Of a stretch of 58,503 bases of DNA, positions 33,462 through 45,725 are shown piece after piece; the stretch's first letter is position 1, and every line of letters begins with the position of its first letter. Location of the stretch: positions 1 through 58,503 of the forward strand of contig JAVEYA010000004.1 of the NCBI GenBank assembly GCA_034003745.1, read 5' to 3'. Both the position numbers and the translations under genes were made by a program. Below the pieces are notes generated by a model. It made no database searches. It had not been told where the DNA came from and saw only the letters and a program-made list of their open reading frames with translations. Source of the DNA: Clostridia bacterium (GTDB lineage Bacteria; Bacillota; Peptococcia; DRI-13; PHAD01).

Positions 33462-33488
33462 AAAAAATGCGCCCAGCAACTGGGCGCG
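33462..33488 (-). terminator. Rho-independent terminator after the GntR-family gene
   Basis: gcgcccag / caa / ctgggcgc, followed by ATTTTTTT on the minus strand. Confidence 0.65.
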
Positions 33489-33527: not shown

Positions 33528-34277
33528 TTATTTTTTTTCGTAAAGACACACTTGCCAATACTTATTGACGTCCTCCACCAGACTATCGATATGCGCCGCC
33601 ATAGCGGCTTCGGCTTTATCCGGATCTCTCTGACGGATCGCGTCCGCAATACGCCGGTGGGAAACCATATACTCCGCCTGGATTTTTGTTCGGATATATT
33701 CGAAGGATTTGGACTGCTGCCCGAAAATGGCCAATTGGTTGTACACGGTCTCCAGAATCGTATTTTTCGAAGCTTTGGCGATGGTTTTGTGAAAGGCCAG
33801 GTCATCGCCGGTAATCCATTGTTTTTCTTTGTGTTTTTGTTCCTGGCGGGCGAGGACCCCGTCCAAAAAGGAAATTTCCTCGGGCGTAGCCTTAAGGGCG
33901 GCCAAGCGCGCCGTACCTCTTTCCACCGTGCGGCGGGCCTCCAGTACGACCAAAAAGTCTTCCAGCACCTGGGGATTGATGTATTTATTGAGCTTGTTCT
34001 GCTCTGAAGTGATATCCTTTAATTGTTTGTTATAGCGGATCGCGTCCATGCCTTTATCCGTGATAATCCTGCCGCGGAATTTTTCTTTCTGCAGGTACCC
34101 CAGACTTTCCAGCCTATTCAAGACGCGCCCCACCGTAGCAGAACTGGTCTCAATATTTTCTTCCGCCAGTTGATTCACCAGATACCAGGAACCGATGGGA
34201 ACCTGGGCGTCCCCCACCATTTCCAGGACCAAAATTTCTTTTTCATCTAATTCTTCGTACAACTGCCAAACCTCCAC
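33528..34277 (-). CDS. GntR/FadR-type transcriptional regulator (wHTH + FCD domain)
   Basis: N-terminal wHTH (SSATVGRVLNRLESLGYL) and a C-terminal all-helical FCD-like domain (LEARRTVERGTARLAA...HRRIADAI). Confidence 0.78.
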   Translation of the reverse strand: MEVWQLYEELDEKEILVLEMVGDAQVPIGSWYLVNQLAEENIETSSATVGRVLNRLESLGYLQKEKFRGRIITDKGMDAIRYNKQLKDITSEQNKLNKYINPQVLEDFLVVLEARRTVERGTARLAALKATPEEISFLDGVLARQEQKHKEKQWITGDDLAFHKTIAKASKNTILETVYNQLAIFGQQSKSFEYIRTKIQAEYMVSHRRIADAIRQRDPDKAEAAMAAHIDSLVEDVNKYWQVCLYEKK

Positions 34278-34336
34278 TTTCCGAGTACCGGGATACTCTG
34301 CGCTGAGTATATTTTACCCATCCGCAGCACAGTTGT

Positions 34337-35779
34337 CTAGGCTTTCACGGAGTGGGAAGCGGAAGAGGTTTTGGTGAAGAGGGAAACCACGATAATCAAG
34401 ATAAAGGAAATAGCCAGGGCAATGAGCACGCGATGGGGTCCCAAAGCGGTAATCTGAGTCAGGAGAGCGCCGGCCACCATGCCGATTCGAGCGCCCCAGG
34501 GCGTGACTTTACTGTTTCGTTTACCTGCGACATGGGCTTCTCCGGGCCGTTCCTTCCACAGCAGGCCGACCACCAGCAGCGGGACCAGACCTCCGCCGGC
34601 CATCTGATAGGCTCTGGAGAACAGACTGAGGATTGAACTGGCATAAATGGCCGTGATGGCTGCAAAAACCCCAATGATGACAGTAAGCCAGCGTACGGTT
34701 TTCAGCATATCCTTATCGCTGATCTCAGGTTTGAATACCTTGACCACGTCATTGGTTAAGAGTACAGAGGCGGAGTTTAAGTTGGAATCCGCCGAGGACA
34801 TCCCGGCCGCCAGGATCAACAGGAAGATCATCACAGCGATGGAAGGCGGCACCACGTTCATCATAAACCAGGGCATGGCGTCATCCGGGCTCAGACTGGG
34901 ATTCATGGTGAAAATAATTACGCCGACGAGGGCGGACAGCATAACCATAATAATGGCGATAGTGCCCGAAGAGAGCAGGCCGTTTCTGGCTGTTTTGGCG
35001 TCTTTAGCCGCAAAGCAGCTCTGCCAGTACATTTGCGCCGCCAAGATACCGATACAGCCGGTGACAAAGTTCGTGGCCGCCGTGGCGTAACTGGTGCCGG
35101 CGAAGGTCCACATATTGGATTTACCCAACGTGGTAAGGCGGGCGCCGATTTCGGCAAAGCTGAAGTTCACCTGGGAGAAGGCAAAGCCATAGAAAATCGT
35201 GCCGAAAACGACGACCATCAGGCCCAGGACAAGGTCCATCCAGACCAGGGAGTGATAGCCGCCCAAAGTAGTATAGACAATATAAATGGCAGTAAATAGG
35301 AAGATGATTGGAATCGGATTGGCGCCGGTGATAACGTTGAAAATGGTACCGAAGCCTTTCGCCTGACCGCCGGTCCAGGCAATCATGATGCTGCAGGCCA
35401 AAAGCGCGGCTATTACGCGCGTTACTTTATCCCGTACCACCAAATCGTCCAGCATTTCTACATAGGTATTATAGATAAACCTTCCGGCAAAACCCGCGAA
35501 TACAAGTGCAAAAATGATTTTAGACCCCTGTTCGCCCAGGATGAAAAACAGCCAGGGCAAACCGGTGGAATACCCTCTGCCGGCATGGCCGACAAAGTTG
35601 CCGACCCCCATGATATTGGCAAATTCAGTGAAGAAGATTAAAAAGAAGGGAAGCGTGCCCGCGGCGATAGCATAGTTGGAAAAGCTTTGATCGGCTTTGC
35701 TTTTCATTTTGATGGAAATCCACAGGAAAAACAGGCCCAACACGATTGTGGCAATCCAGAGCATAGTGCCTAAAGACAT
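34337..35779 (-). CDS. Sodium:solute symporter family (SSF) transporter
   Basis: 480 aa, about 12-13 TM helices, SSF-type pattern (GGYHSLVWMDLV, AAGMSSADSNL). Confidence 0.85.
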   Translation of the reverse strand: MSLGTMLWIATIVLGLFFLWISIKMKSKADQSFSNYAIAAGTLPFFLIFFTEFANIMGVGNFVGHAGRGYSTGLPWLFFILGEQGSKIIFALVFAGFAGRFIYNTYVEMLDDLVVRDKVTRVIAALLACSIMIAWTGGQAKGFGTIFNVITGANPIPIIFLFTAIYIVYTTLGGYHSLVWMDLVLGLMVVVFGTIFYGFAFSQVNFSFAEIGARLTTLGKSNMWTFAGTSYATAATNFVTGCIGILAAQMYWQSCFAAKDAKTARNGLLSSGTIAIIMVMLSALVGVIIFTMNPSLSPDDAMPWFMMNVVPPSIAVMIFLLILAAGMSSADSNLNSASVLLTNDVVKVFKPEISDKDMLKTVRWLTVIIGVFAAITAIYASSILSLFSRAYQMAGGGLVPLLVVGLLWKERPGEAHVAGKRNSKVTPWGARIGMVAGALLTQITALGPHRVLIALAISFILIIVVSLFTKTSSASHSVKA

Positions 35780-35884
35780 AATTAAATCCTCCTCTCAATT
35801 TTATACAGACTGTTTTGAAGATACCGTTAGCTTTAAGCAAAGGAAGAATGCCGGTGCTGCCACCTCCTTTCTTGAAGGTGTCCT

Positions 35885-37108
35885 TTAACCCGAGTGCTGC
35901 AAAGTGTCTTGGGAGAGAAACAAACGGGCCGGGGACAATTCCTGCAAATCGTGTTCCTGCAGTTCGGCCGGCAGGCTGTTACCGGTAATCATTTGGGCGA
36001 TGATTTTTCCGGTTACGGGCGCCAAGGCGATGCCGTCGCCTTCATGGCCTGCGGCCAGGAAGAAGCCGGGCAGTCCCGGAACTTCTCCGATAAAAGGTTT
36101 GCCGTCGTCGGAAGCCGGACGCAGCCCGGCAAAGCTGCGGATAATGTGCACATTTTTAAGGAGCGGAATAAACCGGGTGGCTTCTTTGATCATCAGGTGC
36201 AACGCAGCAAAATGGGTGGTTTTCTCGAAACCGGCATACTCCCGGGTACCGCCGATAAAATAGTTGCCGTCATGGGTCTGGGAAAGGGAAAGACCGATCC
36301 CCAGTTCATCCAGCAGCGCCGGGCGGCCCAGCGAAAGAGTAGGATCCAGTTTCATCACGATATAATCAGCGCTCCAGACATTGGTTTGACCCAAAGGGGG
36401 AACCTGTTCGGTTACGGCAATCTGTCCGCGCTTAGGCAGGATGGGGACGTCCAGCCCCACCAGTTTGGTCACCTCCGGCGTCCAGGCGCCTGCCGCCACC
36501 AGAACTGTTTCGGCGATAAATTTTTCTCCGTTGGTAGACGTTATTTCCCAGCTCCGGTCCCCAATCATCCGGAATTTCCGGGGCGCAGTTCCTTTTTTTA
36601 CGGTCAGACCTTTTTGGCCGGCGGCATAGGCGAAAGCCCGCATGACTTTGAGGGGATTGACCTGAGAATCCAGCGGGCTGTATGTAGAGGCTAAAACATG
36701 CGGGCTGACGTGGGGTTGTAGTTTGCGCATCTCGTCTTTTTCTAAAAATCTTACATCCAAGCCCAGCTGCTGCTGCTGCTCCACAAAATTTTTCATAACC
36801 TTAAGCTGTTCCGGCGTTTCGATCAGGACCATCCCCCCCCTGGTTTCCAAATCCAACGGCAGCGGCAGGTCTTTTTCCAAACGGCGGTAGAGCTCAAGAC
36901 TGTACAGGGCCAGGGAAAGCATGATACCCGGTTTTTTGGATTGGAGAAAAATCATATCATCGCAGGAGCCGGAGGCGCCGCCGCCGATCTCCTTTTTCTC
37001 CAGGAGCAGAACTTTTTTACCGGCCTGTGTAAGATAATAGGCGCCGGCCAAACCGGTAATGCCGCCTCCAATAATAACAATATCGTAATGATGTTGATTT
37101 AATGACAT
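35885..37108 (-). CDS. FAD-dependent oxidoreductase, DadA/HcnC/sarcosine-oxidase-beta family
   Basis: DIVIIGGGITGLAGAYYL dinucleotide fold. C-terminal GHEGDGIALAP. Start ATG MSLNQ with GGAGG 7 nt upstream. Confidence 0.85.
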   Translation of the reverse strand: MSLNQHHYDIVIIGGGITGLAGAYYLTQAGKKVLLLEKKEIGGGASGSCDDMIFLQSKKPGIMLSLALYSLELYRRLEKDLPLPLDLETRGGMVLIETPEQLKVMKNFVEQQQQLGLDVRFLEKDEMRKLQPHVSPHVLASTYSPLDSQVNPLKVMRAFAYAAGQKGLTVKKGTAPRKFRMIGDRSWEITSTNGEKFIAETVLVAAGAWTPEVTKLVGLDVPILPKRGQIAVTEQVPPLGQTNVWSADYIVMKLDPTLSLGRPALLDELGIGLSLSQTHDGNYFIGGTREYAGFEKTTHFAALHLMIKEATRFIPLLKNVHIIRSFAGLRPASDDGKPFIGEVPGLPGFFLAAGHEGDGIALAPVTGKIIAQMITGNSLPAELQEHDLQELSPARLFLSQDTLQHSG

Positions 37109-37198
37109 GTAATACCTCCAAACTTTAATTATGGAAGCCAATCCGACTACTCATCATTTAATGAGAAGCTCTTAATAATAAAATACCACAACTGTGCC

Positions 37199-37213
37199 AC
37201 TATTTGAAATAGT
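37199..37213. promoter_or_regulatory. Perfect 7-1-7 palindrome in the divergent intergenic region (candidate operator)
   Basis: ACTATTT-G-AAATAGT, about 40 nt upstream of the putative -35 of the plus-strand operon. Confidence 0.3.
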
Positions 37214-37250
37214 CTAATAGCAAGTATACAAAATTTTTTCTTTTCCCGGT

Positions 37251-37278
37251 TTGAAATTGGCGGCAAAGACGATATAAT
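37251..37278 (+). promoter_or_regulatory. Candidate sigma-A promoter of the 2Fe2S-dapA-oxidoreductase operon
   Basis: TTGAAA (37251-56), 16-nt spacer, TATAAT (37273-78). Confidence 0.4.
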
Positions 37279-37349
37279 GGAAAGTGAAAGCTACTCACCT
37301 TATGATGAGCAATTCAGCAAAAAGAGATCACACAACAGGAGGTAAGAAG

Positions 37350-37643
37350 ATGGACGCCAAGGAGCAAGTCTATATCTGCCGGTGTGAAGAAATATCCCGG
37401 CGGGAAATAGAAGAAGCCATTGCCAATGGGGCCACTACCCTGAATGAAATAAAGCGCTGGACCAGGGCCGGGATGGGTCTCTGTCAGGGTAAAATTTGCG
37501 CGAAAAATGTCTCCCGGATCATCAGCGAGCAAACCGAACAGCCCCCGGAACGGGTGTTGCCGGCCACAACGCGCCAACCTGTGCGTCCGGTTTCTATCCG
37601 GGTGATTTCGGAGACCAATCAGATAATTTCTGAGATAAAGTGA
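37350..37643 (+). CDS. BFD-like (2Fe-2S)-binding protein
   Basis: CRC...CQGKIC cysteine pattern. Start ATG MDAKEQ with AGGAGG upstream. The upstream part of the listed ORF lacks an RBS. Confidence 0.75.
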   Translation: MDAKEQVYICRCEEISRREIEEAIANGATTLNEIKRWTRAGMGLCQGKICAKNVSRIISEQTEQPPERVLPATTRQPVRPVSIRVISETNQIISEIK

Positions 37644-37654
37644 GGAGGATGTTT

Positions 37655-38548
37655 ATGCAGGACTGGGGACGCTTGATCACCGCTATGGTCACTCCTTTCG
37701 ATGAATCCGGGAAACTGGATTTGGGCGGCGCATGCTCGCTTGCCGGTCAACTGGCGCAGGAAGGCGCCACCGCATTGGTACTGGCCGGAACCACCGGAGA
37801 AAGTCCCACGCTTTCCAAAGAGGAAAAACTGGCGCTGTTTCGCAGTGTAAAAAAGGCCGTATCCCTGCCGGTTATCGCCAATGTGGGCAGCAATAACACC
37901 TTGGAATCGGCGGAATTTGCCCAGGCGGCCCGGAAGACCGGCGTAGACGGCCTGATGACCGTCGTACCCTATTATAATAAACCCAATAAGGCCGGTTTGT
38001 ACCGGCATTATCAGACCATTGCCGAAGCAGGCCGGCTGCCGCTGATGATCTATAACGTGCCCGGCCGTACCGGGCTCAATCTTGATGCCGGGACGATTCT
38101 TCAGCTGACGGAAATTCCCTATGTCTGCTGCATCAAGGAAGCCACCGACGACTTTGCCAAGATCGCCTGTATCCTCCGGAACGCCCCTCCTCATTTCAAG
38201 GTTTACACCGGTGAAGACAGCTTAACGCTGCCGGTTCTGGCAGTAGGGGGGTATGGGGTGGTGAGCGTGGCCTCCCATGTGGCCGGACCAATTATGCGCC
38301 GGATGATCGATAGTTTCCTGTCCGGAAATATCGCCCTGGCGCAAAAATTACATCTGACTCTTTCCCCACTGTATGAAAGTTTATTTATGACGTCGAATCC
38401 TATCCCGGTCAAAGCCGCTCTAAGAATCCGGGGTTTTAACGCCGGGCCGCTGCGCCTGCCTCTCATAGAAGCGGATGATACGGTCATTGCCCGGCTGTCT
38501 GCAGATCTGGCCGGTTTGGCCCGGATGGAAGGAGCGGATAAAGGATGA
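37655..38548 (+). CDS. dapA: 4-hydroxy-tetrahydrodipicolinate synthase family (DapA/DHDPS)
   Basis: GTTGESPTLS, YYNKP, YNVPGRTG, active-site Lys context CIKEA, NPIPVKAAL...RLPL. Closely resembles Gram-positive DapA. The start is ambiguous (37649 or 37655, both after GAGGAGG). Confidence 0.85.
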   Translation: MQDWGRLITAMVTPFDESGKLDLGGACSLAGQLAQEGATALVLAGTTGESPTLSKEEKLALFRSVKKAVSLPVIANVGSNNTLESAEFAQAARKTGVDGLMTVVPYYNKPNKAGLYRHYQTIAEAGRLPLMIYNVPGRTGLNLDAGTILQLTEIPYVCCIKEATDDFAKIACILRNAPPHFKVYTGEDSLTLPVLAVGGYGVVSVASHVAGPIMRRMIDSFLSGNIALAQKLHLTLSPLYESLFMTSNPIPVKAALRIRGFNAGPLRLPLIEADDTVIARLSADLAGLARMEGADKG

Positions 38549-38880
38549 ACCGGATTGAGCATCATATTGTATTAGGTGAACTGCCCCTCAAGAAGCAAGT
38601 GACGATTTATGTAGATAACCGGCCGTTAACCGCTTATGAAGGCGAAATGATCGCCGCTGTCTTATGGGCTAACGAGCAGAAAACGCTCAGATATACCAAA
38701 AAAAATCATCCCCGGGGCATCTATTGCGGAATCGGGCGCTGCACGGACTGCGTCATGACGGTGGACGGCGTGCCGAATGTGCGGACCTGCAAAACACCTG
38801 TGCGCGACGGGATGAAGGTAGAAACCCAGCGGGGGCTGGGGCAGTGGACAAAAGGAGAACCTATTCATGAAAAAGTTTGA
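38545..38880 (+). CDS. HcnA-like / sarcosine-oxidase-alpha-N-terminal-like (2Fe-2S) protein
   Basis: 111 aa. YCGIGRCTDCVMTVDG...RTC cysteine pattern. The start overlaps the dapA stop (ATGA). Confidence 0.75.
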   Translation: MNRIEHHIVLGELPLKKQVTIYVDNRPLTAYEGEMIAAVLWANEQKTLRYTKKNHPRGIYCGIGRCTDCVMTVDGVPNVRTCKTPVRDGMKVETQRGLGQWTKGEPIHEKV

Positions 38881-39979
38881 ATTGGCGGTCGTAGGCGGCG
38901 GTCCAGCCGGTCTTTCCGCCGCAATCGAAGCGGCCAAGCACGGGGTCAAGACGCTGGTAATCGATGAAAATGACCGGCCGGGTGGACAGCTTTTCAAACA
39001 AATCCATAAATTTTTTGGTTCCAGTGAACACCAGGCCGGAATCCGGGGGGTGGAAATCGGCAGGCGGCTCTTGGCCGAAACAGCTCAACTGGGTATTGAA
39101 ACCTGGCTCAATTCGGAAGTGGTCGGCATCAGCCCGGAGAAAACGGTCTGGGTAGTGAAAGACGGTACGGAATCCCTAGAGGTTCAGGCCGAACGGATTA
39201 TCCTCTCTACCGGCGCTCTGGAAAACGCCCTGAATTTCCCCGGCTGGACCCTGCCCGGGGTAATGAGTGCGGGGGCGGCCCAGACGATGATCAATATCCA
39301 CCGGGTGAAACCCGGCCGACGGGCTTTAATGATCGGTTCCGGCAACGTCGGGGTCATCGTCTCTTACCAGCTTTTGCAAGCCGGCGTGGAAGTGGCGGCC
39401 ATTATTGAAGCGGCCCCCCGCCTGGGCGGGTACGGTGTCCATACAGCCAAAGTACGGCGCGCCGGGGCGCCATTTTACGTTTCCCATACCATATCCAAAA
39501 TATTGGGTGAACACAAGGTAGAGGGAGCGGAAATTGTGGCTCTGGATAAACGCTTCCTGCCCATTTCCGGTTCGGAAAAGACGCTGGAGGTCGACACCAT
39601 TTGCGTCGCCACGGGCTTGACTCCCTTAGCGGAACTGGCCTGGTTCTTAGGATGCCGTTTCCATTTTATCCCGCAGTTGGGTGGTTTTGTCCCCGATCAT
39701 GACAGTCACATGGAGAGCAGTGTTCCCGGGGTTTATCTCGCCGGAGATATTTCCGGCGTGGAAGAAGCCTCCACGGCTATGGAGGAAGGCCGGCTGGCCG
39801 GTATCCGCGCGGCGGCGTCTCTAGGCCGCCTTTCCCCGGAGGAGGCGAATACGTTGGAAGAGACCGTTTGGGCGCGCTTAAACGCCCTGCGCAGCGGTCC
39901 TTTCGGCGCGGTCCGGCGCCAGGCCAAGGAATCCATCTTACAAAAAGAGGGGGCGATCGCCTATGACAGCGTCCGATAA
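38867..39979 (+). CDS. FAD/NAD(P)-binding pyridine nucleotide-disulfide-type oxidoreductase (HcnB/OoxA-like)
   Basis: VVGGGPAGLSAA and a second dinucleotide fold IGSGNVGV. GDISG near the C-terminus. Overlaps the upstream gene by 14 nt. Confidence 0.85.
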   Translation: MKKFELAVVGGGPAGLSAAIEAAKHGVKTLVIDENDRPGGQLFKQIHKFFGSSEHQAGIRGVEIGRRLLAETAQLGIETWLNSEVVGISPEKTVWVVKDGTESLEVQAERIILSTGALENALNFPGWTLPGVMSAGAAQTMINIHRVKPGRRALMIGSGNVGVIVSYQLLQAGVEVAAIIEAAPRLGGYGVHTAKVRRAGAPFYVSHTISKILGEHKVEGAEIVALDKRFLPISGSEKTLEVDTICVATGLTPLAELAWFLGCRFHFIPQLGGFVPDHDSHMESSVPGVYLAGDISGVEEASTAMEEGRLAGIRAAASLGRLSPEEANTLEETVWARLNALRSGPFGAVRRQAKESILQKEGAIAYDSVR

Positions 39980-40508
39980 GAAACCGTCTACACCGCTGAA
40001 CCCACATCCCGGTGTCAAAATTTGTGGGGCGCCCAGCCATGCGGAAGTCATCCGTACGCCCGGCTATCCCCGGGAAGAAATCTGGCGTAAAGGCCCGGTG
40101 GCTTTTATCGAGTGCGTGGAGGAGATTCCCTGCAATCCTTGCGAAGGGGCCTGCCCCCAGGGAGCGATTACCGTAGGCCGGCCGATCACGAACCTGCCAG
40201 TCCTGGATGCGGAAAAATGCCGGGGCTGCCGGCTCTGTATCGCGTCTTGTCCCGGTTTGGCCATCTTTGTTAAGGATTACACTTACAGCGCCACAGAGGC
40301 AAAGATAACCTTCCCTTATGAATATTGGCCCCTCCCGGCCAAGGGGCAGCAGGTGACTCTGGTAGACGAGCTGGGGGAAGCCGTGTGTCCGGGGCAAGTC
40401 CTCCAGGTGATGAATACGGAACGCAATAAACAGACCCCGCTGATCACCGCCAGTTTCCCCAAAGAATACTTTGAACGGGTCAAGTCTATGGAAAGGCTTC
40501 GTTCATAA
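39963..40508 (+). CDS. 4Fe-4S cluster-binding protein (electron-transfer subunit)
   Basis: CNPCEGACP and CRGCRLCIASCP motifs. Overlaps the upstream gene by 17 nt. Confidence 0.75.
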   Translation: MTASDKKPSTPLNPHPGVKICGAPSHAEVIRTPGYPREEIWRKGPVAFIECVEEIPCNPCEGACPQGAITVGRPITNLPVLDAEKCRGCRLCIASCPGLAIFVKDYTYSATEAKITFPYEYWPLPAKGQQVTLVDELGEAVCPGQVLQVMNTERNKQTPLITASFPKEYFERVKSMERLRS

Positions 40509-40567
40509 CGGACTGCAGCCGGTTATACTATTAGCGCAGCATCATTAATTCCAGGAGGAAAATACGT

Positions 40568-41593
40568 ATGAAAAAATTAACTGTCGCTGTTGTAGGCGCC
40601 CTGGGCGCGGTGGGGACGGAGATGCTCCGCACCCTTGAGAAATCCTCCCTGCCTCTCCAGGAGATCGTGCCGCTGGATATTGCGGCACATCAGGGCAAGA
40701 CCGTTTCTTTCCGTAATCAGCTGCTGACCGTTAAAACAGCGGAACCCGGCGCCTTCCGGAGTATCGATATCGCCCTTTTTTCCGCCGGGGAGCAGGCCAG
40801 CCTGGCTCTGGCGCAGGTAGCCGTCGCCGAAGGCGCCGTGGTCATCGACAACAGCAACGCCTGGCGGATGGACCCGGCTGTTCCGCTGGTGGTGCCGGAG
40901 GTCAATCCCCAGGCTGCCGGGGAACATCGGGGGATTATTGCCAATCCCAACTGTTCCACCATTCAGATGCTGGTCGCCTTAAAGCCGCTTCATGATCGAT
41001 TTAAAATCAAGCGGATTGTGGTTGCCACTTACCAGGCTGTTTCCGGGACGGGGCTGCCCGCCATCCGGGAACTAAGCAGCCAGGCAAAGGACTGCCTGGC
41101 AGGCAAAACGGTTACGCCGGCCGTATATCCGCACCAGATTGCTTTTAATTGTTTGCCCCATATTGACACTTTTCTGAAGAACGGTTACACCAAAGAGGAA
41201 ATGAAAATGTTCCATGAAACCAGGAAAATCCTGGGGGATCCGAATATTCTGGTCACAGCCACCGCGGTCAGGGTCCCGGTTTTCCGCTGCCACTCGGAAG
41301 CCCTTAATATCGAAACAGAAAACGCCCTGCCTTCTGTAGAGGCAGTCAGAGAACTGCTCCGCGAAGCGCCGGGCGTTGAGGTGGTTGACGATGTCGGTAA
41401 CAATCTCTATCCCCTGGCCTCACTTTCTGCCGGGGCGGATAAGGTTGCTGTCGGCCGGATCCGCCAAGACTTTAGCGTGCCTAACGGCCTGAACCTATGG
41501 GTGGTCGGGGACAACTTGCGTAAAGGCGCGGCTTTAAACGCCGTCCAAATTGCCGAACTGCTGGTGGAGAAAAACTGGCTGAAAAGGGAATAG
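40568..41593 (+). CDS. asd: Aspartate-semialdehyde dehydrogenase
   Basis: 341 aa. VVGALGAVG, active-site IANPNCSTIQ, YQAVSGTG. Confidence 0.95.
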   Translation: MKKLTVAVVGALGAVGTEMLRTLEKSSLPLQEIVPLDIAAHQGKTVSFRNQLLTVKTAEPGAFRSIDIALFSAGEQASLALAQVAVAEGAVVIDNSNAWRMDPAVPLVVPEVNPQAAGEHRGIIANPNCSTIQMLVALKPLHDRFKIKRIVVATYQAVSGTGLPAIRELSSQAKDCLAGKTVTPAVYPHQIAFNCLPHIDTFLKNGYTKEEMKMFHETRKILGDPNILVTATAVRVPVFRCHSEALNIETENALPSVEAVRELLREAPGVEVVDDVGNNLYPLASLSAGADKVAVGRIRQDFSVPNGLNLWVVGDNLRKGAALNAVQIAELLVEKNWLKRE

Positions 41594-41595
41594 GG

Positions 41596-43548
41596 TTAAG
41601 AAACGATACCGCTGCTGCCGAGTTTTCCTATTTTCTCCAGATCATCAGCCACTTTTGACAGGCTGTATTTTTCCAGCGTGGCTCTGGTAGGATAACTGGT
41701 TTGAGGATCCCAGCCATGTATCTCGTAATAATGATCCAGCATTTTCTCAAATTTTTCCCTATCCAGCTTCCATCCGGCCAGGGATCCTGAGGGGATCGGC
41801 TCAAACGTGCGGGCCTGCGGGATATCGTCTTTTCTATCAAAACTTGTAAACTTTAGATTCAAAGCCTTTTCCATATTCAGCTGACGCATCGCGATGGCCT
41901 CCAGGTCCTCGATGGTATATTCCCGACCGATGGCCGCCGATAACAGCTCCGCAAAATCATGGATATTCATATAGCCAAAATTCTGGCAAATGGTATTGAA
42001 GACACATACCCCGGTGCTGTTGCAGATCCTGGTCATTACTTCCGTATGCTGGATCAGCTCCGGTTTCCCCTCGTAGCCGATGGGGTTCTTGATCCGGTTA
42101 TAATCTTTGATGCCGGAAATCTGATAGACTCTTTCATCCTCTATCTCAATGGTCCGATGTTCCCAAAAGGGGGTACCCGTGGTATGGCCGCCGCCCCGCG
42201 TGGAGACCAGCGTCCCCAGCGACCAGCCGTTCGTCCCCCGCAATGTCTCATAAAGGTCTTGCCTTTTGACATGAAAAGCATATTCGCTGCCCCGCCCCAT
42301 CAAGTTGGAAGCGCGGTAACAGCCTTCCGCCAGAATGTTGCCAAATCCTTCCCTGTAACATATTTTACGGATCAGCTCCAGGATGACTTCTTCATTGCCC
42401 CAGGTCAATTCCAGGCCATCCGTATCCTCTTTGGTCAAAAGCCCTTTTTCATAGCATTCCATAGCCCAGCCGATTGCGCCCGATGGTCCTTCCATATCTA
42501 CTCCCATTTGATTCAGATAGGAATTCACCTTAGGTGCGAAGGTAACATCCTCTACGGCCAGTTTAGCCATCAGTCCGCCCATCAGCTCCCATTGCTGCGC
42601 TTCGGTGGTCAATCCCTCATAGCGTCCGTCCGTAATGGTTACATGCCTGGAGCAGCATAGGGCGCAGCCTGGGAAACCCTGTTTGGCGACTTCATATTTA
42701 TCAATCATTTTCTGCGTATTCAACTTCTCATAGATGTCTTGCGGCCAGCTGCAATCCTGAAAATTCTTATAGGAAATGGCGCAGACTTTTTGTTTTACCT
42801 CGTAGTTGTTGCCCAGCGTACCATATTTTCTAAACTTCTCGGTACCTGGGTTATTTTTGATTTTTTCCCGCACTTCGGAAACGATCTTGGCAAACCTTTT
42901 ATGATCAGCCACCTTGATCGGTTTCTTCCCTTTACAGACAATGGCCTTTAAGTTTTTGGAGCCCGCTATTGCCCCGGTACCGCAGCGTCCGATGGCCCGG
43001 TTTTTATCCTGGATCAGGCAAGCGCTCCTGACCAGGTTTTCCCCGGCCGGGCCAATGGACAGGACGTGCAGGCTAGGATCCTGCAGCTCTTCCCGAATGG
43101 CCTCCAGGGTGTCCCAGGTGGTTTTTCCCCAGAGGTTGGAGGCGTCTTTGATTTCCACCTCTTCATCCGTTATCCATAGATAACAGGGTTTATGGGCGCG
43201 GCCTTCCACGATCAGATGGTCATAACCGGCATGCTTGAGTTCCATCCCCACATAGCTGTCCGTGGAACCGGTAGCCCACCCCCCGGTAATCGGTCCCAGC
43301 GTGCTGGCCGACATTTTACAGGCGCCGGGAGCCAGCGTTCCCATTAAAGGGCCGGCAGAAAAAATGATTTTATTGTGAACATCAAAAGGCGTCACCCAAT
43401 CGGGGAGTTCGTCATAGAGTATTTTTACCGCCAAGGCGCCCAGCCAATCGTCATATTGGGCGGAATGGTCTTCTACCGTAACGGTTTTTGTCGTCAGATT
43501 AACGCGCAGGGTTTTACCCGTATAAGCATAGATTTCCGGTTTGTTCAT
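41596..43548 (-). CDS. aor: Aldehyde:ferredoxin oxidoreductase family (tungstopterin enzyme)
   Basis: 650 aa. AFOR N-terminal domain (LRVNLT...), cluster/pterin-binding region with conserved Cys. The stop lies 2 nt from the convergent asd stop. Confidence 0.9.
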   Translation of the reverse strand: MNKPEIYAYTGKTLRVNLTTKTVTVEDHSAQYDDWLGALAVKILYDELPDWVTPFDVHNKIIFSAGPLMGTLAPGACKMSASTLGPITGGWATGSTDSYVGMELKHAGYDHLIVEGRAHKPCYLWITDEEVEIKDASNLWGKTTWDTLEAIREELQDPSLHVLSIGPAGENLVRSACLIQDKNRAIGRCGTGAIAGSKNLKAIVCKGKKPIKVADHKRFAKIVSEVREKIKNNPGTEKFRKYGTLGNNYEVKQKVCAISYKNFQDCSWPQDIYEKLNTQKMIDKYEVAKQGFPGCALCCSRHVTITDGRYEGLTTEAQQWELMGGLMAKLAVEDVTFAPKVNSYLNQMGVDMEGPSGAIGWAMECYEKGLLTKEDTDGLELTWGNEEVILELIRKICYREGFGNILAEGCYRASNLMGRGSEYAFHVKRQDLYETLRGTNGWSLGTLVSTRGGGHTTGTPFWEHRTIEIEDERVYQISGIKDYNRIKNPIGYEGKPELIQHTEVMTRICNSTGVCVFNTICQNFGYMNIHDFAELLSAAIGREYTIEDLEAIAMRQLNMEKALNLKFTSFDRKDDIPQARTFEPIPSGSLAGWKLDREKFEKMLDHYYEIHGWDPQTSYPTRATLEKYSLSKVADDLEKIGKLGSSGIVS

Positions 43549-43563
43549 GATTCATAACCCCTT

Positions 43564-43905
43564 TCATTTGGATTTTAACGCCCCATTGCTGTTCGACCGG
43601 CACTTTCCCACAAATTCTTTAATGATTTCTTTTAATTCAGTACTTTTAAGACAATAGTCCAGACAAAAAGGGGCTTCCCGATCTATGCAGCCGTCACAGG
43701 CCAGCCGGTTCCCTTCCGGTTGTTCCAGCAATTTAATGTCATATCCGCTTCCATCTTTTCTTTCCACAATTTCAATGCCGGAAATCTGATGGTTGAATTC
43801 TCCCGTCAGTTTATATGAACAGGCTATCTCACATGTTTTGCATCCACCGCAGTCATCCATCTTAAATAACACTTCCTGTATCCCTCCAATCCGTTTTATT
43901 GGCAA
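43564..43905 (-). CDS. Small ferredoxin-like Fe-S protein
   Basis: 113 aa. CGGCKTCEIAC plus CDGC...C...C. Confidence 0.6.
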   Translation of the reverse strand: MPIKRIGGIQEVLFKMDDCGGCKTCEIACSYKLTGEFNHQISGIEIVERKDGSGYDIKLLEQPEGNRLACDGCIDREAPFCLDYCLKSTELKEIIKEFVGKCRSNSNGALKSK

Positions 43906-43908
43906 GTT

Positions 43909-45174
43909 TTATAGGTCTTCTATCCTGTTAACAGCCGGTATAATTCTGACCTGATCTCCCGGCGCCAGCGGTCCGCTGCCGGCCGGAATATCGACCAATA
44001 CGTCGGCTTTCACAAAAGAAGAAATAATACTGTTTCCCTGATGATCGCAGAGCTTCACACAAGCCTTGCCGTCTATCACCGCCAATTTGCCGCACAAAAA
44101 GCGCCTGGCCGGACTGGCCTTGGAGAATCCGTCCAGGGTGACGGCGGAAATTGGCTCAGGCAGGCAGCGTTCTTGCCCTTTAAGCTTCTTCAAGGCAGGC
44201 AATACGAGCAAATGAAACATCACGGCAACAGCAGCCGGGTTTCCCGAGAGGCTAAAAATCAGTTTTCCATCCAGCTTCGTAACCGTTGTGGGTGATCCCG
44301 GCTTCATTTTCACTTGCCAAAAAAGCTGTTCAACGCCAAGAAGCGCCAAGGCTTTTTTGACCACATCCGCTTCGCCTACCGAAACGCCGCCCGTCGTTAT
44401 CACCACGTCGGCGCATTTAAGGCCGTTCCTAATATGCCCCATCACAGAGGCCGGATGGTCAGCCGCGGTACCGATAACCTTCGCTGCAACGTGATATTCC
44501 CGGCAAAAGTTCTCCAGTAAATACCCGTTGCTGTTGCGGATTTTCCCGGGAACAAGCTGCCCGTCTATAGGAATAAGCTCATCCCCGGTATTGATGATGG
44601 CAACCCGCGGCAGGTCATAGACCGGTATTTCCGTTATGCCCAGCGCCGCAAAAAGAGCCGCCTGGGCGGGCGTTACCAGGGAACCCCGGGCTGCGATCAG
44701 ATCACCCCGGGTTACATCTTCTCCTGTTCTGATAATATTGCTTTTTGGCTGGAGCGGTTCGGAGATAAAAATGTCCTCTGCGTTTTTTACCGTATCCTCG
44801 TATCTGATTACGGTATCTGCGCCGGCGGGGACGGGAGAACCGGTCATGACTTGAATTGCTGTTTTTGCCGTAATTTTTCGGGCTGAAACCTGCCCGGTCC
44901 GAATCGCATCAATGACCCGCAGGCGGACAGGCGAACGCGGACTTGCTTTTTCCGTATCTTTGGCCCGAAGGGCATAACCGTCTAAGGGGGAACGATCAAA
45001 AGGAGGAATATTTTCTCCGGCGTAGGCATTACGGCTGATAATTCTGTGCAAGGCCATATCCAGCGAGACGGAACACTCCCCGACCGGTTCCAGTTCCTGC
45101 AGAACCAATTCCTGGGCTTCTTCTAAAGAAACCTTTTTTTCTGCCGGCCAGTTGGATGATGACAGTATATTCAC
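43909..45174 (-). CDS. moeA: Molybdopterin molybdenum/tungsten transferase MoeA
   Basis: 421 aa. PPFDRSPLDGYA, TGDEL, TTGGVSVGEAD. Confidence 0.9.
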   Translation of the reverse strand: MNILSSSNWPAEKKVSLEEAQELVLQELEPVGECSVSLDMALHRIISRNAYAGENIPPFDRSPLDGYALRAKDTEKASPRSPVRLRVIDAIRTGQVSARKITAKTAIQVMTGSPVPAGADTVIRYEDTVKNAEDIFISEPLQPKSNIIRTGEDVTRGDLIAARGSLVTPAQAALFAALGITEIPVYDLPRVAIINTGDELIPIDGQLVPGKIRNSNGYLLENFCREYHVAAKVIGTAADHPASVMGHIRNGLKCADVVITTGGVSVGEADVVKKALALLGVEQLFWQVKMKPGSPTTVTKLDGKLIFSLSGNPAAVAVMFHLLVLPALKKLKGQERCLPEPISAVTLDGFSKASPARRFLCGKLAVIDGKACVKLCDHQGNSIISSFVKADVLVDIPAGSGPLAPGDQVRIIPAVNRIEDL

Positions 45175-45683
45175 ACGCCTTCCCTCCTGTTGAATTCGAT
45201 CATGTACTTTTCCAGTTCATCCGCGATTCCGGCTGCGTCGTCGAGAGAGAAACAAGGAATCCCCATCTCCCATTTGACATCGCTGGCCAAGGCAAGAAGC
45301 TCATTCTCCCGGCAAAGCAGTTCCTGATGTATGCCGGCCCGGTATACTTCAATTTTCGGCTTATGCTCATTTTTGTAGCCCTCTGTCAAAATAAGATCAA
45401 CGCCGGTCAGTTTTTCCGCCAGTTCATCAAGCCCATATTCCGAGGACCTTTTTTCGATGACCGCCATTTTCCGCGGAGACGAGATGGCTACGATATCTGC
45501 GCCGGCTTGGGCCAGTATCCAGGTATCTTTACCAGGCCGGTCCATTTCAAAACCGTGGACATCATGTTTGATCACAGCAATACGGTAATTTCGTTTTTTT
45601 AATTCTTTCACAATCTTTTCCAGCAAAGTGGTTTTTCCCACCCCTGATCTTCCTACGACAGAAACTACCGGAATACCGCTCAT
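45171..45683 (-). CDS. mobB: Molybdopterin-guanine dinucleotide biosynthesis adapter MobB
   Basis: Walker A GRSGVGKTTL, then IKH. Start ATG MSGIPVV with AGGAGG 6 nt upstream. Confidence 0.88.
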   Translation of the reverse strand: MSGIPVVSVVGRSGVGKTTLLEKIVKELKKRNYRIAVIKHDVHGFEMDRPGKDTWILAQAGADIVAISSPRKMAVIEKRSSEYGLDELAEKLTGVDLILTEGYKNEHKPKIEVYRAGIHQELLCRENELLALASDVKWEMGIPCFSLDDAAGIADELEKYMIEFNRREGV

Positions 45684-45725
45684 GCTTAACCTCCTACTCA
45701 TAGCCCGGGATAAGCGCCGCCTGAA

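Follow-up and report, generated by a model that had tools for sequence, protein, structure and literature searches.

A conserved flavo-Fe-S dehydrogenase cluster with dedicated DapA and Asd paralogues: a candidate catabolic regulon at the dihydrodipicolinate node in anaerobe-type spore-formers

We analyzed a gene cluster on contig JAVEYA010000004.1 of the Clostridia bacterium assembly GCA_034003745.1, in which a dapA gene lies among the genes for a flavin- and iron-sulfur-containing dehydrogenase and is followed by asd. The window, meaning the whole stretch of 58,503 nucleotides, belongs to a 96%-complete genome assembly (G000). An original prediction had proposed that the cluster serves either the catabolism of a cyclic imino acid or an alternative route to dipicolinate. 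Domain profile searches and a check of the open reading frames recovered all nine reading frames on which it was built, in the same places and with the same domains. These nine genes form two divergent units. The minus-strand unit contains a DAO-family flavoprotein gene of the beta-type catalytic subunit (35885-37108, 407 aa; PF01266, 7.8e-70), a Na+/solute symporter of the SSF family that is the presumed substrate importer (34337-35779, 480 aa; PF00474, 3.9e-28; TIGR00813), and a regulator with a winged-helix N-terminus and an FCD domain (33528-34277, 249 aa; PF07729, 1.2e-23), and it ends in a terminator-like hairpin with an 8-bp stem, including seven GC pairs, and a T-run (33469-33487, minus strand). 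The plus-strand unit encodes a BFD-type [2Fe-2S]/sarcosine-oxidase A3 domain protein (37350-37643, 97 aa; PF04324, 2.7e-15; PF17806, 7.1e-14), a paralogue of dihydrodipicolinate synthase (DHDPS), the enzyme that makes 4-hydroxy-tetrahydrodipicolinate (HTPA), here called DapA2 (37655-38548, 297 aa), a small Fer2_4 [2Fe-2S] subunit resembling HcnA and the SoxA N-terminus (38545-38880; PF13510, 1.6e-31), an alpha-type flavoprotein with FAD and NAD(P) dinucleotide folds (38867-39979; PF07992, 9.3e-36; TIGR01372 soxA over residues 171-486), a gamma-type ferredoxin-like subunit with cysteines for two [4Fe-4S] clusters (39963-40508, 181 aa; Fer4 family matches), and a cluster-type aspartate-semialdehyde dehydrogenase (ASADH), Asd2 (40568-41593). 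The regulator had been described as a GntR/FCD protein. Its FCD part stands, whereas the N-terminus did not match the GntR helix-turn-helix model PF00392 and matched HTH_12 instead, with a weak match to FUR.

Three of the longest reading frames are better started internally. For the DAO gene, whose longest frame extends to 37141, the ATG at 37108 has GGAGG 7 nt upstream. The BFD frame is open from 37284, but this longer version would cover the promoter and operator described below, and the ATG at 37350 is preceded by AGGAGG. Similarly, DapA2 (longest frame from 37640) is better begun at the ATG at 37655, which has a Shine-Dalgarno sequence in front and lies 11 nt past the BFD stop. The revised lengths of all three proteins match those of their orthologues. 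The predicted tight coupling of the plus-strand genes was borne out by overlaps of 4 nt between DapA2 and Fer2_4, 14 nt between Fer2_4 and the flavoprotein, and 17 nt between the flavoprotein and Fer4, while asd follows after a gap of 59 nt and carries an AGGAGG of its own.

Sequence comparisons place the dehydrogenase subunits in a known enzyme class. Glycine oxidases are among the matches of the DAO subunit, which also aligns along its whole length with 1Y56_B, chain B of the Pyrococcus horikoshii proline dehydrogenase; the alpha-type flavoprotein, with GxGxxG motifs at residues 10 and 157 that mark its two dinucleotide folds, matches sarcosine oxidase alpha (2GAG_A, SoxA) and 1Y56_A/PH1363. 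Because of these matches the earlier comparison of the subunit inventory with heteromeric amine dehydrogenases of the DAO superfamily holds. Indeed, the combination that defines this class, a DAO beta subunit, a two-fold alpha subunit and a small 2Fe-2S subunit, is encoded together here. The cysteine patterns of the BFD protein (CxC...Cx4C) and the Fer2_4 protein (Cx4Cx2Cx12C; Cys61, 66, 69 and 82) each fit one 2Fe-2S cluster. Eight cysteines are found in the Fer4 protein (C51/57/60/64 and C86/89/92/96), where one motif is a canonical CxxCxxCxxxCP and the other has atypical spacing. The BFD protein is a putative detached C-terminal piece of the alpha subunit. A second, paralogous complex is encoded on contig 78 of the same genome (L123:1591-5184) and comprises Fer2_4, flavoprotein (61% identity), Fer4, BFD and DAO genes; its neighbors are FeoB, an iron repressor and an ECF component, and no DapA, Asd, transporter or regulator gene lies nearby.

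DapA2 scored 297.9 bits against TIGR00674, for which the equivalog cut-off that we used to assign DHDPS membership is 206.15 bits; the next model, HpaI-NOT-DapA, gave 191 against a cut-off of 396.7. In an alignment with 19 housekeeping DapA sequences, DapA2 keeps GTTGES, PYYNKP, YNVPGRTG and IKEA. It also retains the Schiff-base lysine, the catalytic Thr/Tyr/Tyr set and the arginine that binds L-aspartate semialdehyde (ASA), which we take to be K161, T44, Y107, Y133 and R138 of the Escherichia coli enzyme. Its clade-specific changes (W9, N81, V82, A94, T190 and E192) fall away from the catalytic motifs, and the cluster-embedded DapAs share substitutions beside the SGDD and AGTG motifs. The closest relatives of DapA2, at 56-66% identity, are found in three metagenome-assembled genomes, and the remaining matches are housekeeping Bacillaceae DapAs at about 50%, the level of its identity to the Bacillus DHDPS. 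In our DapA tree, where the distant members of the family were represented by 12 proteins from sister clusters rather than by experimentally characterized LhpC, the embedded DapAs form one cluster-specific clade (support 100/98). This clade is sister to the housekeeping DapA of the class (97/89), lies within true DHDPS and is well apart from the distant DapA-family proteins (24-35% identity) that accompany paralogous complexes. The description of this DapA as a bona fide Gram-positive-type DHDPS is therefore upheld by the cut-off, the motifs and a position in the tree among true DHDPS and not among the other enzymes of the DapA family.

It is not the only dapA in the genome, so the case named in advance as speaking against catabolism, a sole dapA, does not apply. 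Contig 13 carries a second copy (351 bits) immediately downstream of the genome's single dapB, in the order pnp, ylxY, DD-carboxypeptidase, ymxG-like, ymxH, dapB, dapA, RNase J; this is the neighborhood classically linked to sporulation, although spoVFAB is missing from it. Asd2 is likewise a paralogue. It contains both domains of the family (PF01118 and PF02774) and passes the ASADH cut-offs with 423.6 bits on TIGR01296 (cut-off 324.2) and 458 bits on NF011456 (cut-off 223). It is 63% identical to the only other Asd of the genome, which is also above the equivalog cut-off and is encoded on contig 6 (40294-42498; locus L139:6295-8499), where it is followed by the genome's only aspartokinase gene. 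In the Asd tree, the proteins encoded within such clusters group in a single clade (100/99), separate from the housekeeping enzymes of G002, G003 and G006, and the contig 6 copy falls in this cluster-type clade. Since the asd beside the aspartokinase is thus also of the cluster type, the window's family (G000 and G018) is without a housekeeping-type asd, which seems to have been lost. In a sister genus (L121) a matching asd-aspartokinase pair lies directly downstream of the cluster. In a check for signs of lost feedback control, Pfam found no ACT domain at E <= 1e-5 in the cluster aspartokinases or in the genome's own copy. Because both extra copies keep the cut-offs and motifs of their families and form clades within true DHDPS and ASADH, ASA and HTPA are the likely intermediates of the pathway.

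The cluster is conserved as a unit. The set of asd, usually an aspartokinase, BFD, DapA, Fer2_4, flavoprotein, Fer4, DAO, regulator and importer genes recurs with shuffled order in seven other genomes (G001, G002, G003, G005, G006, G018 and G440, with the orthologous loci L009, L010, L011, L119, L120, L121 and L230) and on seven metagenome contigs, so that the linkage is not due to chance. DapA is embedded between the BFD and Fer2_4 genes in the three metagenome-assembled genomes that hold its closest relatives, in three more members of the class and in one genome from another part of the phylum. An asd gene belongs to five of the seven loci; the other two do not reach that far, L009 stopping within the flavoprotein gene and L230 being the short locus of G440, whose only asd lies about 2 Mb away from its cluster. 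The same five loci include an aspartokinase gene, directly after the cluster asd in four and after a second downstream asd copy in G018. Four loci share the order asd, aspartokinase, BFD, DapA, Fer2_4, flavoprotein, Fer4, while asd is placed after Fer4 in the window and in G018. Wherever the sequence extends far enough, the DAO, regulator and importer genes of the relatives are divergent, and the regulator orthologues are 59-69% identical in six related loci. The importer is an SSS protein in five loci (the window, L009, L010, L011 and L120), and in L119 and L121 it is a TAXI-TRAP system composed of an NMT1_3 binding protein and a fused DctQM; TAXI-TRAP also takes its place in five metagenome loci. 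TRAP systems are importers. The exchange is a non-orthologous swap in which the link to uptake is retained. The seven metagenome contigs have the same gene content on a single strand, and three of them start with TAXI-TRAP genes, which are sometimes followed by a PF01177 racemase-family gene. The cluster is rare: an evenly drawn sample of 401 genomes across the phylum held only one further embedded DapA2-type cluster. A metagenome scan with the flavoprotein alignment returned no orthologue at 70% identity or above, the related types reaching at most 66%.

Related complexes occur in other gene neighborhoods as well. Sister clusters place the same complex beside distant DapA-family proteins, often together with a tungsten-type aldehyde:ferredoxin oxidoreductase (AOR), and probably represent imino-acid pathways of the hydroxyproline type. 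The window itself has a tungsten-type AOR of 650 aa on the minus strand (41596-45701), convergent with asd across a 2-nt gap and accompanied by genes for a small Cys-rich protein, MoeA and a MobB-like protein. This AOR is 23-33% identical to those of the sister clusters, and its adjacency is not kept in six orthologous loci; it could oxidize an aldehyde or supply reduced ferredoxin, and the adjacency may matter because the sister clusters pair the same flavo-Fe-S complex with AORs. Locus L138 (G028:C2:1-13000) has a three-gene complex (flavoprotein, BFD and DAO) with a sigma-54 activator next to it. After the complex come genes for an FCD regulator, a divergent DapB-like protein, an SBP_bac_5 protein and an SSS transporter. 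At 77% identity, this transporter is more similar to that of the window than are those of the orthologous clusters, and for this reason may carry the same substrate into another downstream route. The nearest paralogous complexes, with a DAO 59% identical to that of the window, are those of L131 and L129 (G033:C70 and G034:C14), in whose operon a racemase-family gene (PF01177) and a full-length DapB-like gene are found, with a sigma-54/PAS activator and an adjoining DctM-like transporter. DapB-like proteins of about 405 aa with a C-terminal ACT fusion are encoded beside related complexes at L156:11626-12840 (minus strand) and L155:4179-5399 (plus strand), and in L155 a homoserine-dehydrogenase-family gene occupies the expected place of DAO.

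Both divergent units have a sigmaA-type promoter followed by a common 16-nt inverted repeat, CTCAYC-N4-GATGAG. The promoter of the BFD-DapA...asd operon, TTGAAA-16-TATAAT (37251-37278, plus strand), agrees with the consensus at 11 of 12 positions, and TTGACT or TTGACC with a 17-nt spacer and TATAAT is found at the same place in four of the six orthologous loci (L119, L120, L121 and L009). One copy of the repeat, CTCATC-N4-AATGAG, lies in the leader of the minus-strand unit (37150-37165), and the other, CTCACC-N4-GATGAG, lies just downstream of the plus-operon -10 (37294-37309). These two matches, one per leader, compare with 0.24 expected in the 58.5-kb window, and both copies are found at the same places in all seven control regions compared (the window, L009, L010, L011, L119, L120 and L121). 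The repeat is unlike the usual FadR-type GT-N-AC sites. Between the promoters, a AATTGTATACAAAATT-like box with a GTATAC core (37224-37229) is a further candidate operator of the FadR/GntR type and is present in four of the seven regions (the window, L119, L010 and L011). A leader RNA element was considered and rejected, since the fold of 37284-37352 was no better than that of shuffled sequences (z = 0.42), which makes a DNA site bound by a protein likelier. A 15-nt palindrome at 37199-37213 was likewise set aside: the six orthologous control regions do not share it, and in the window it overlaps the probable -35 element of the promoter for the minus-strand unit. The layout is best described as a predicted repressor-controlled, vegetatively expressed regulon joining the DAO-importer-regulator unit to the DapA operon. 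Therefore, the assignment of transporter and regulator to the same regulon is sustained by the repeat shared between the two leaders, and it points to catabolism.

Our preferred reading, to which we give roughly even credence, is that the cluster is an inducible catabolic regulon at the HTPA/dihydrodipicolinate node, in which an imported C7 N-dicarboxylate, most parsimoniously dipicolinate, would be converted to pyruvate and ASA and the latter to aspartate. We infer the direction of flux, the substrate and the energy yield as follows. An organic anion would be imported by the Na+ symporter here and by the TAXI-TRAP system in relatives, and a five-protein flavo-Fe-S dehydrogenase, made up of the DAO beta subunit, the FAD/NAD alpha subunit, its detached BFD domain, the small 2Fe-2S protein and the 2x[4Fe-4S] protein, would turn it into HTPA or dihydrodipicolinate. 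The dedicated DapA2 would then act as a retro-aldolase and split this product into pyruvate and ASA, the dedicated Asd2 would convert the aldehyde to aspartyl phosphate, and aspartokinase, whose gene is part of the operon in most relatives but lies on contig 6 in this genome, would move the phosphate to ADP. By analogy with glyceraldehyde-3-phosphate dehydrogenase and phosphoglycerate kinase, the end products would be aspartate, NAD(P)H and ATP. By the same analogy, energy would be gained in this reverse direction only, whereas the forward direction would cost ATP and NADPH and would need no importer. The FCD regulator would shut both divergent sigmaA promoters until the substrate appears. For dipicolinate, the overall reaction would be dipicolinate + 3 H2O -> pyruvate + aspartate, redox-neutral; ring reduction could draw on the two reducing equivalents that Asd releases.

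Dipicolinate is the simplest substrate because the core would then need no further enzyme, because the gene set equals the Bacillus operon with another oxidoreductase, and because the sum is redox-neutral; moreover, dipicolinate is abundant and its anaerobic fermentation is on record. In fact, the conserved core is precisely the gene set of the Bacillus dipicolinate pathway (an oxidoreductase, asd, aspartokinase and dapA), to which an importer and a repressor have been joined. The enzyme that follows the DapA-family step varies: the described pathway uses an aldehyde dehydrogenase, the sister clusters have an AOR, and the present one pairs Asd with aspartokinase. Such an interchangeable aldehyde enzyme fits an aldehyde as the product of the DapA-family step, and hence catabolic flux.

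Several points weigh against this reading. DHDPS is usually described as irreversible. A low-potential donor is required to reduce the dipicolinate ring, and the usual reaction of DAO-type enzymes is the oxidation of amines, not the reduction of pyridines. The window's cluster lacks an aspartokinase gene, the genome's only copy being that on contig 6. Genes of the PF01177 family (Asp/Glu/hydantoin racemases) are present in five related loci and are not explained by dipicolinate, since this compound is achiral. DapB-like genes, which would fit a substrate at the level of tetrahydrodipicolinate or diaminopimelate, lie beside six related clusters (L131, L138, L174, L150, L155 and L156). In the metagenome locus L150 the complex stands beside dapB, an aminotransferase and a lysA-like gene, and looks biosynthetic.

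Some of these points favor a substrate that is a reduced C7 compound used in the same catabolic direction, such as meso- or LL-diaminopimelate from peptidoglycan, piperidine-2,6-dicarboxylate or its 4-hydroxy derivative. We consider this alternative unlikely. The DAO complex would oxidize such a substrate to a cyclic imine, as D-hydroxyproline dehydrogenase does before LhpC, so that the enzyme family would work in its normal direction of amine oxidation, and the racemase-family gene would have a parallel in the epimerase of the hydroxyproline pathway. HTPA can also be viewed chemically as the six-ring dicarboxylate analogue of pyrroline-4-hydroxy-2-carboxylate, and the DapB-like genes beside related clusters would find a place. 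However, no DapB-like gene is present in the seven orthologous loci. Oxidation of diaminopimelate would lead to tetrahydrodipicolinate rather than HTPA, and the conserved core has no gene for the extra oxidation that would be required. Finally, 4-hydroxy-piperidine-dicarboxylates are not known as abundant natural compounds.

A less probable explanation, and one that we doubt, is that the cluster is a non-orthologous dipicolinate synthase that replaces SpoVFAB, with Asd2 and DapA2 running forward and the complex oxidizing HTPA or dihydrodipicolinate for the spore. This was the second proposal of the original prediction, and part of its premise proved sound: neither spoVFA nor spoVFB was found in the genome (the best TIGR02853 and TIGR02852 matches, at 25-27 bits, lie elsewhere), yet SpoIVA, ylxY and ymxH mark the organism as a spore-former. 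The 96%-complete assembly showed no DpaA or DpaB homology, and the complex belongs to other families. Additionally, the gene set mirrors spoVFAB-asd-dapG-dapA, a dapA gene lying among the subunit genes would suit the channelling of an unstable product, and some clostridia are expected to have dipicolinate-forming oxidoreductases still to be identified (10.1101/2022.02.25.481979). The phyletic pattern argues otherwise. No spoVFA was found in any of the 34 genomes belonging to the window's order; 27 of them have SpoIVA and four have the cluster, which leaves 23 SpoIVA-positive genomes with neither spoVFA nor the cluster. In another family (f10), spoVFA is present in nine of nine genomes, two of which (G002 and G003) also have the cluster; this pair carries the canonical spoVFA...asd, dapG, dapA operon alongside a second set of asd, aspartokinase and dapA. 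The cluster thus does not follow a complementary distribution, in which it would be present where SpoVF is missing and dispensable where SpoVF is present. Two homologues of EtfA, the accepted substitute, are encoded in the genome. The promoters, classed at the motif level, are sigmaA-type with an operator-like repeat rather than sigmaK- or sigmaE-like, and the cluster always comes with a transporter for uptake and a repressor that senses a ligand. A core sporulation function would not be expected to be so sparse across the phylum, duplicated, repressor-controlled and linked to an importer. The co-occurrence with spoVFA, the sparse distribution, the sigmaA promoters and the attached importer together disfavor this proposal.

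Most improbable of the explanations is that the cluster catabolizes proline, hydroxyproline or an opine-type imino acid, with DapA2 acting like LhpC and Asd2 on another semialdehyde: the subunit set does equal that of PDH1/LhpBEF/OdhABC-type enzymes (PMC4575208), a PutP/PanF-family transporter and an FCD regulator are present, and the sister clusters are probably imino-acid catabolic, but DapA2, above the DHDPS cut-off with its ASA-binding arginine motif, is nested in the DHDPS clade far from the distant DapA-family proteins and not with the deaminase-type members of hydroxyproline clusters, Asd2 closely resembles the other Asd and has aspartokinase as its recurrent partner, and the suggested hydroxyproline 2-epimerase could not be found, as the 96%-complete genome has no Pro_racemase-family (PF05544) match. 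Thus, the proline- or hydroxyproline-type substrate favored at first is not supported, and the context argues for a substrate of the complex other than proline, hydroxyproline, an opine, sarcosine or glycine.

Dipicolinate makes up 5-15% of spore dry weight and represents a vast store of carbon in sediments and soils. Its anaerobic fermentation was observed by Seyfried and Schink in 1990, as cited in 10.1101/803486. The only characterized route of dipicolinate degradation requires O2, and no degradation or recycling of dipicolinate by spore-formers has been reported (PMC11472048). Our literature search found no paper that assigns genes to anaerobic dipicolinate degradation, and none on a reverse diaminopimelate pathway or on the archaeal complex in a dipicolinate context. 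A role of the cluster in anaerobic dipicolinate use is plausible, and the cluster is a concrete candidate for the genes concerned. More specifically, we tentatively raise the possibility, short of a probable one, that it is the missing anaerobic route, in which a low-potential flavo-Fe-S complex would dearomatize imported dipicolinate and paralogues of DapA, Asd and aspartokinase would run in reverse. If so, substrate-level phosphorylation would provide one ATP as dipicolinate is converted to pyruvate and aspartate, with zero net redox change, and spore-formers could recycle the dipicolinate freed at germination. Even if the substrate were diaminopimelate or another C7 compound, the supposedly biosynthetic DapA, Asd and aspartokinase would have dedicated catabolic paralogues, and aspartyl phosphate would be usable for ATP synthesis. 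In that case, too, automatic annotation of such genes as lysine biosynthesis would be misleading, particularly as both asd copies in the window's family are of the cluster type.

Compared with known systems, the cluster is an undescribed variant of a general scheme, a heteromeric flavoprotein dehydrogenase followed by a DapA-family enzyme and aldehyde oxidation, and matches no described pathway. The archaeal dye-linked L-proline dehydrogenase complexes (P. horikoshii PDH1, 1Y56, and four-subunit alpha-beta-gamma-delta forms) similarly combine a DAO beta subunit, a FAD/NAD alpha subunit and small Fe-S subunits, including a ferredoxin-like one. In contrast to the archaeal complexes, the alpha subunit is split here, the BFD/A3 domain being a protein of its own (97 aa), and the DAO gene has moved to a divergent unit with the importer; proline is an unlikely substrate. 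OdhABC, OoxAB and HcnABC share the DAO, Pyr_redox_2 and Fer2_4 core domain types (PMC4575208), but have neither a DapA, Asd and aspartokinase partner nor a separate 2x[4Fe-4S] subunit. The L-hydroxyproline pathway (LhpA, LhpBEF, LhpC and LhpG) resembles the cluster further in its importer, an optional racemase-type gene, a heteromeric DAO-type dehydrogenase, a DapA-family enzyme acting on a cyclic imine, and a subsequent aldehyde oxidation. Here, however, the DapA member is a true DHDPS paralogue, the aldehyde step is assigned to a phosphorylating Asd with aspartokinase rather than to an aldehyde dehydrogenase, an extra 2x[4Fe-4S] subunit is present, and the genome has no Pro_racemase-family epimerase. 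The dip cluster of Alcaligenes faecalis JQ135, under the GntR/FadR repressor DipR, is likewise inducible under a FadR/FCD-type repressor, and the DipR sites have a GTATAC core (PMC11472048) like the box in four of our seven control regions; as GTATAC is a generic core of the GntR family, this likeness is a weak lead. Unlike the pathway proposed here, the dip route opens with an O2-dependent monooxygenase that forms 3-hydroxydipicolinate, for which the cluster has no gene, and the hosts considered here are anaerobe-type spore-formers. Finally, the Bacillus subtilis spoVFA-spoVFB-asd-dapG-dapA operon, as described in 10.1101/803486, also unites an oxidoreductase at the dihydrodipicolinate level with asd, aspartokinase and dapA, whereas the present cluster has an oxidoreductase of another kin than DpaAB, sigmaA-type promoters accompanied by a candidate repressor site, and an attached importer.

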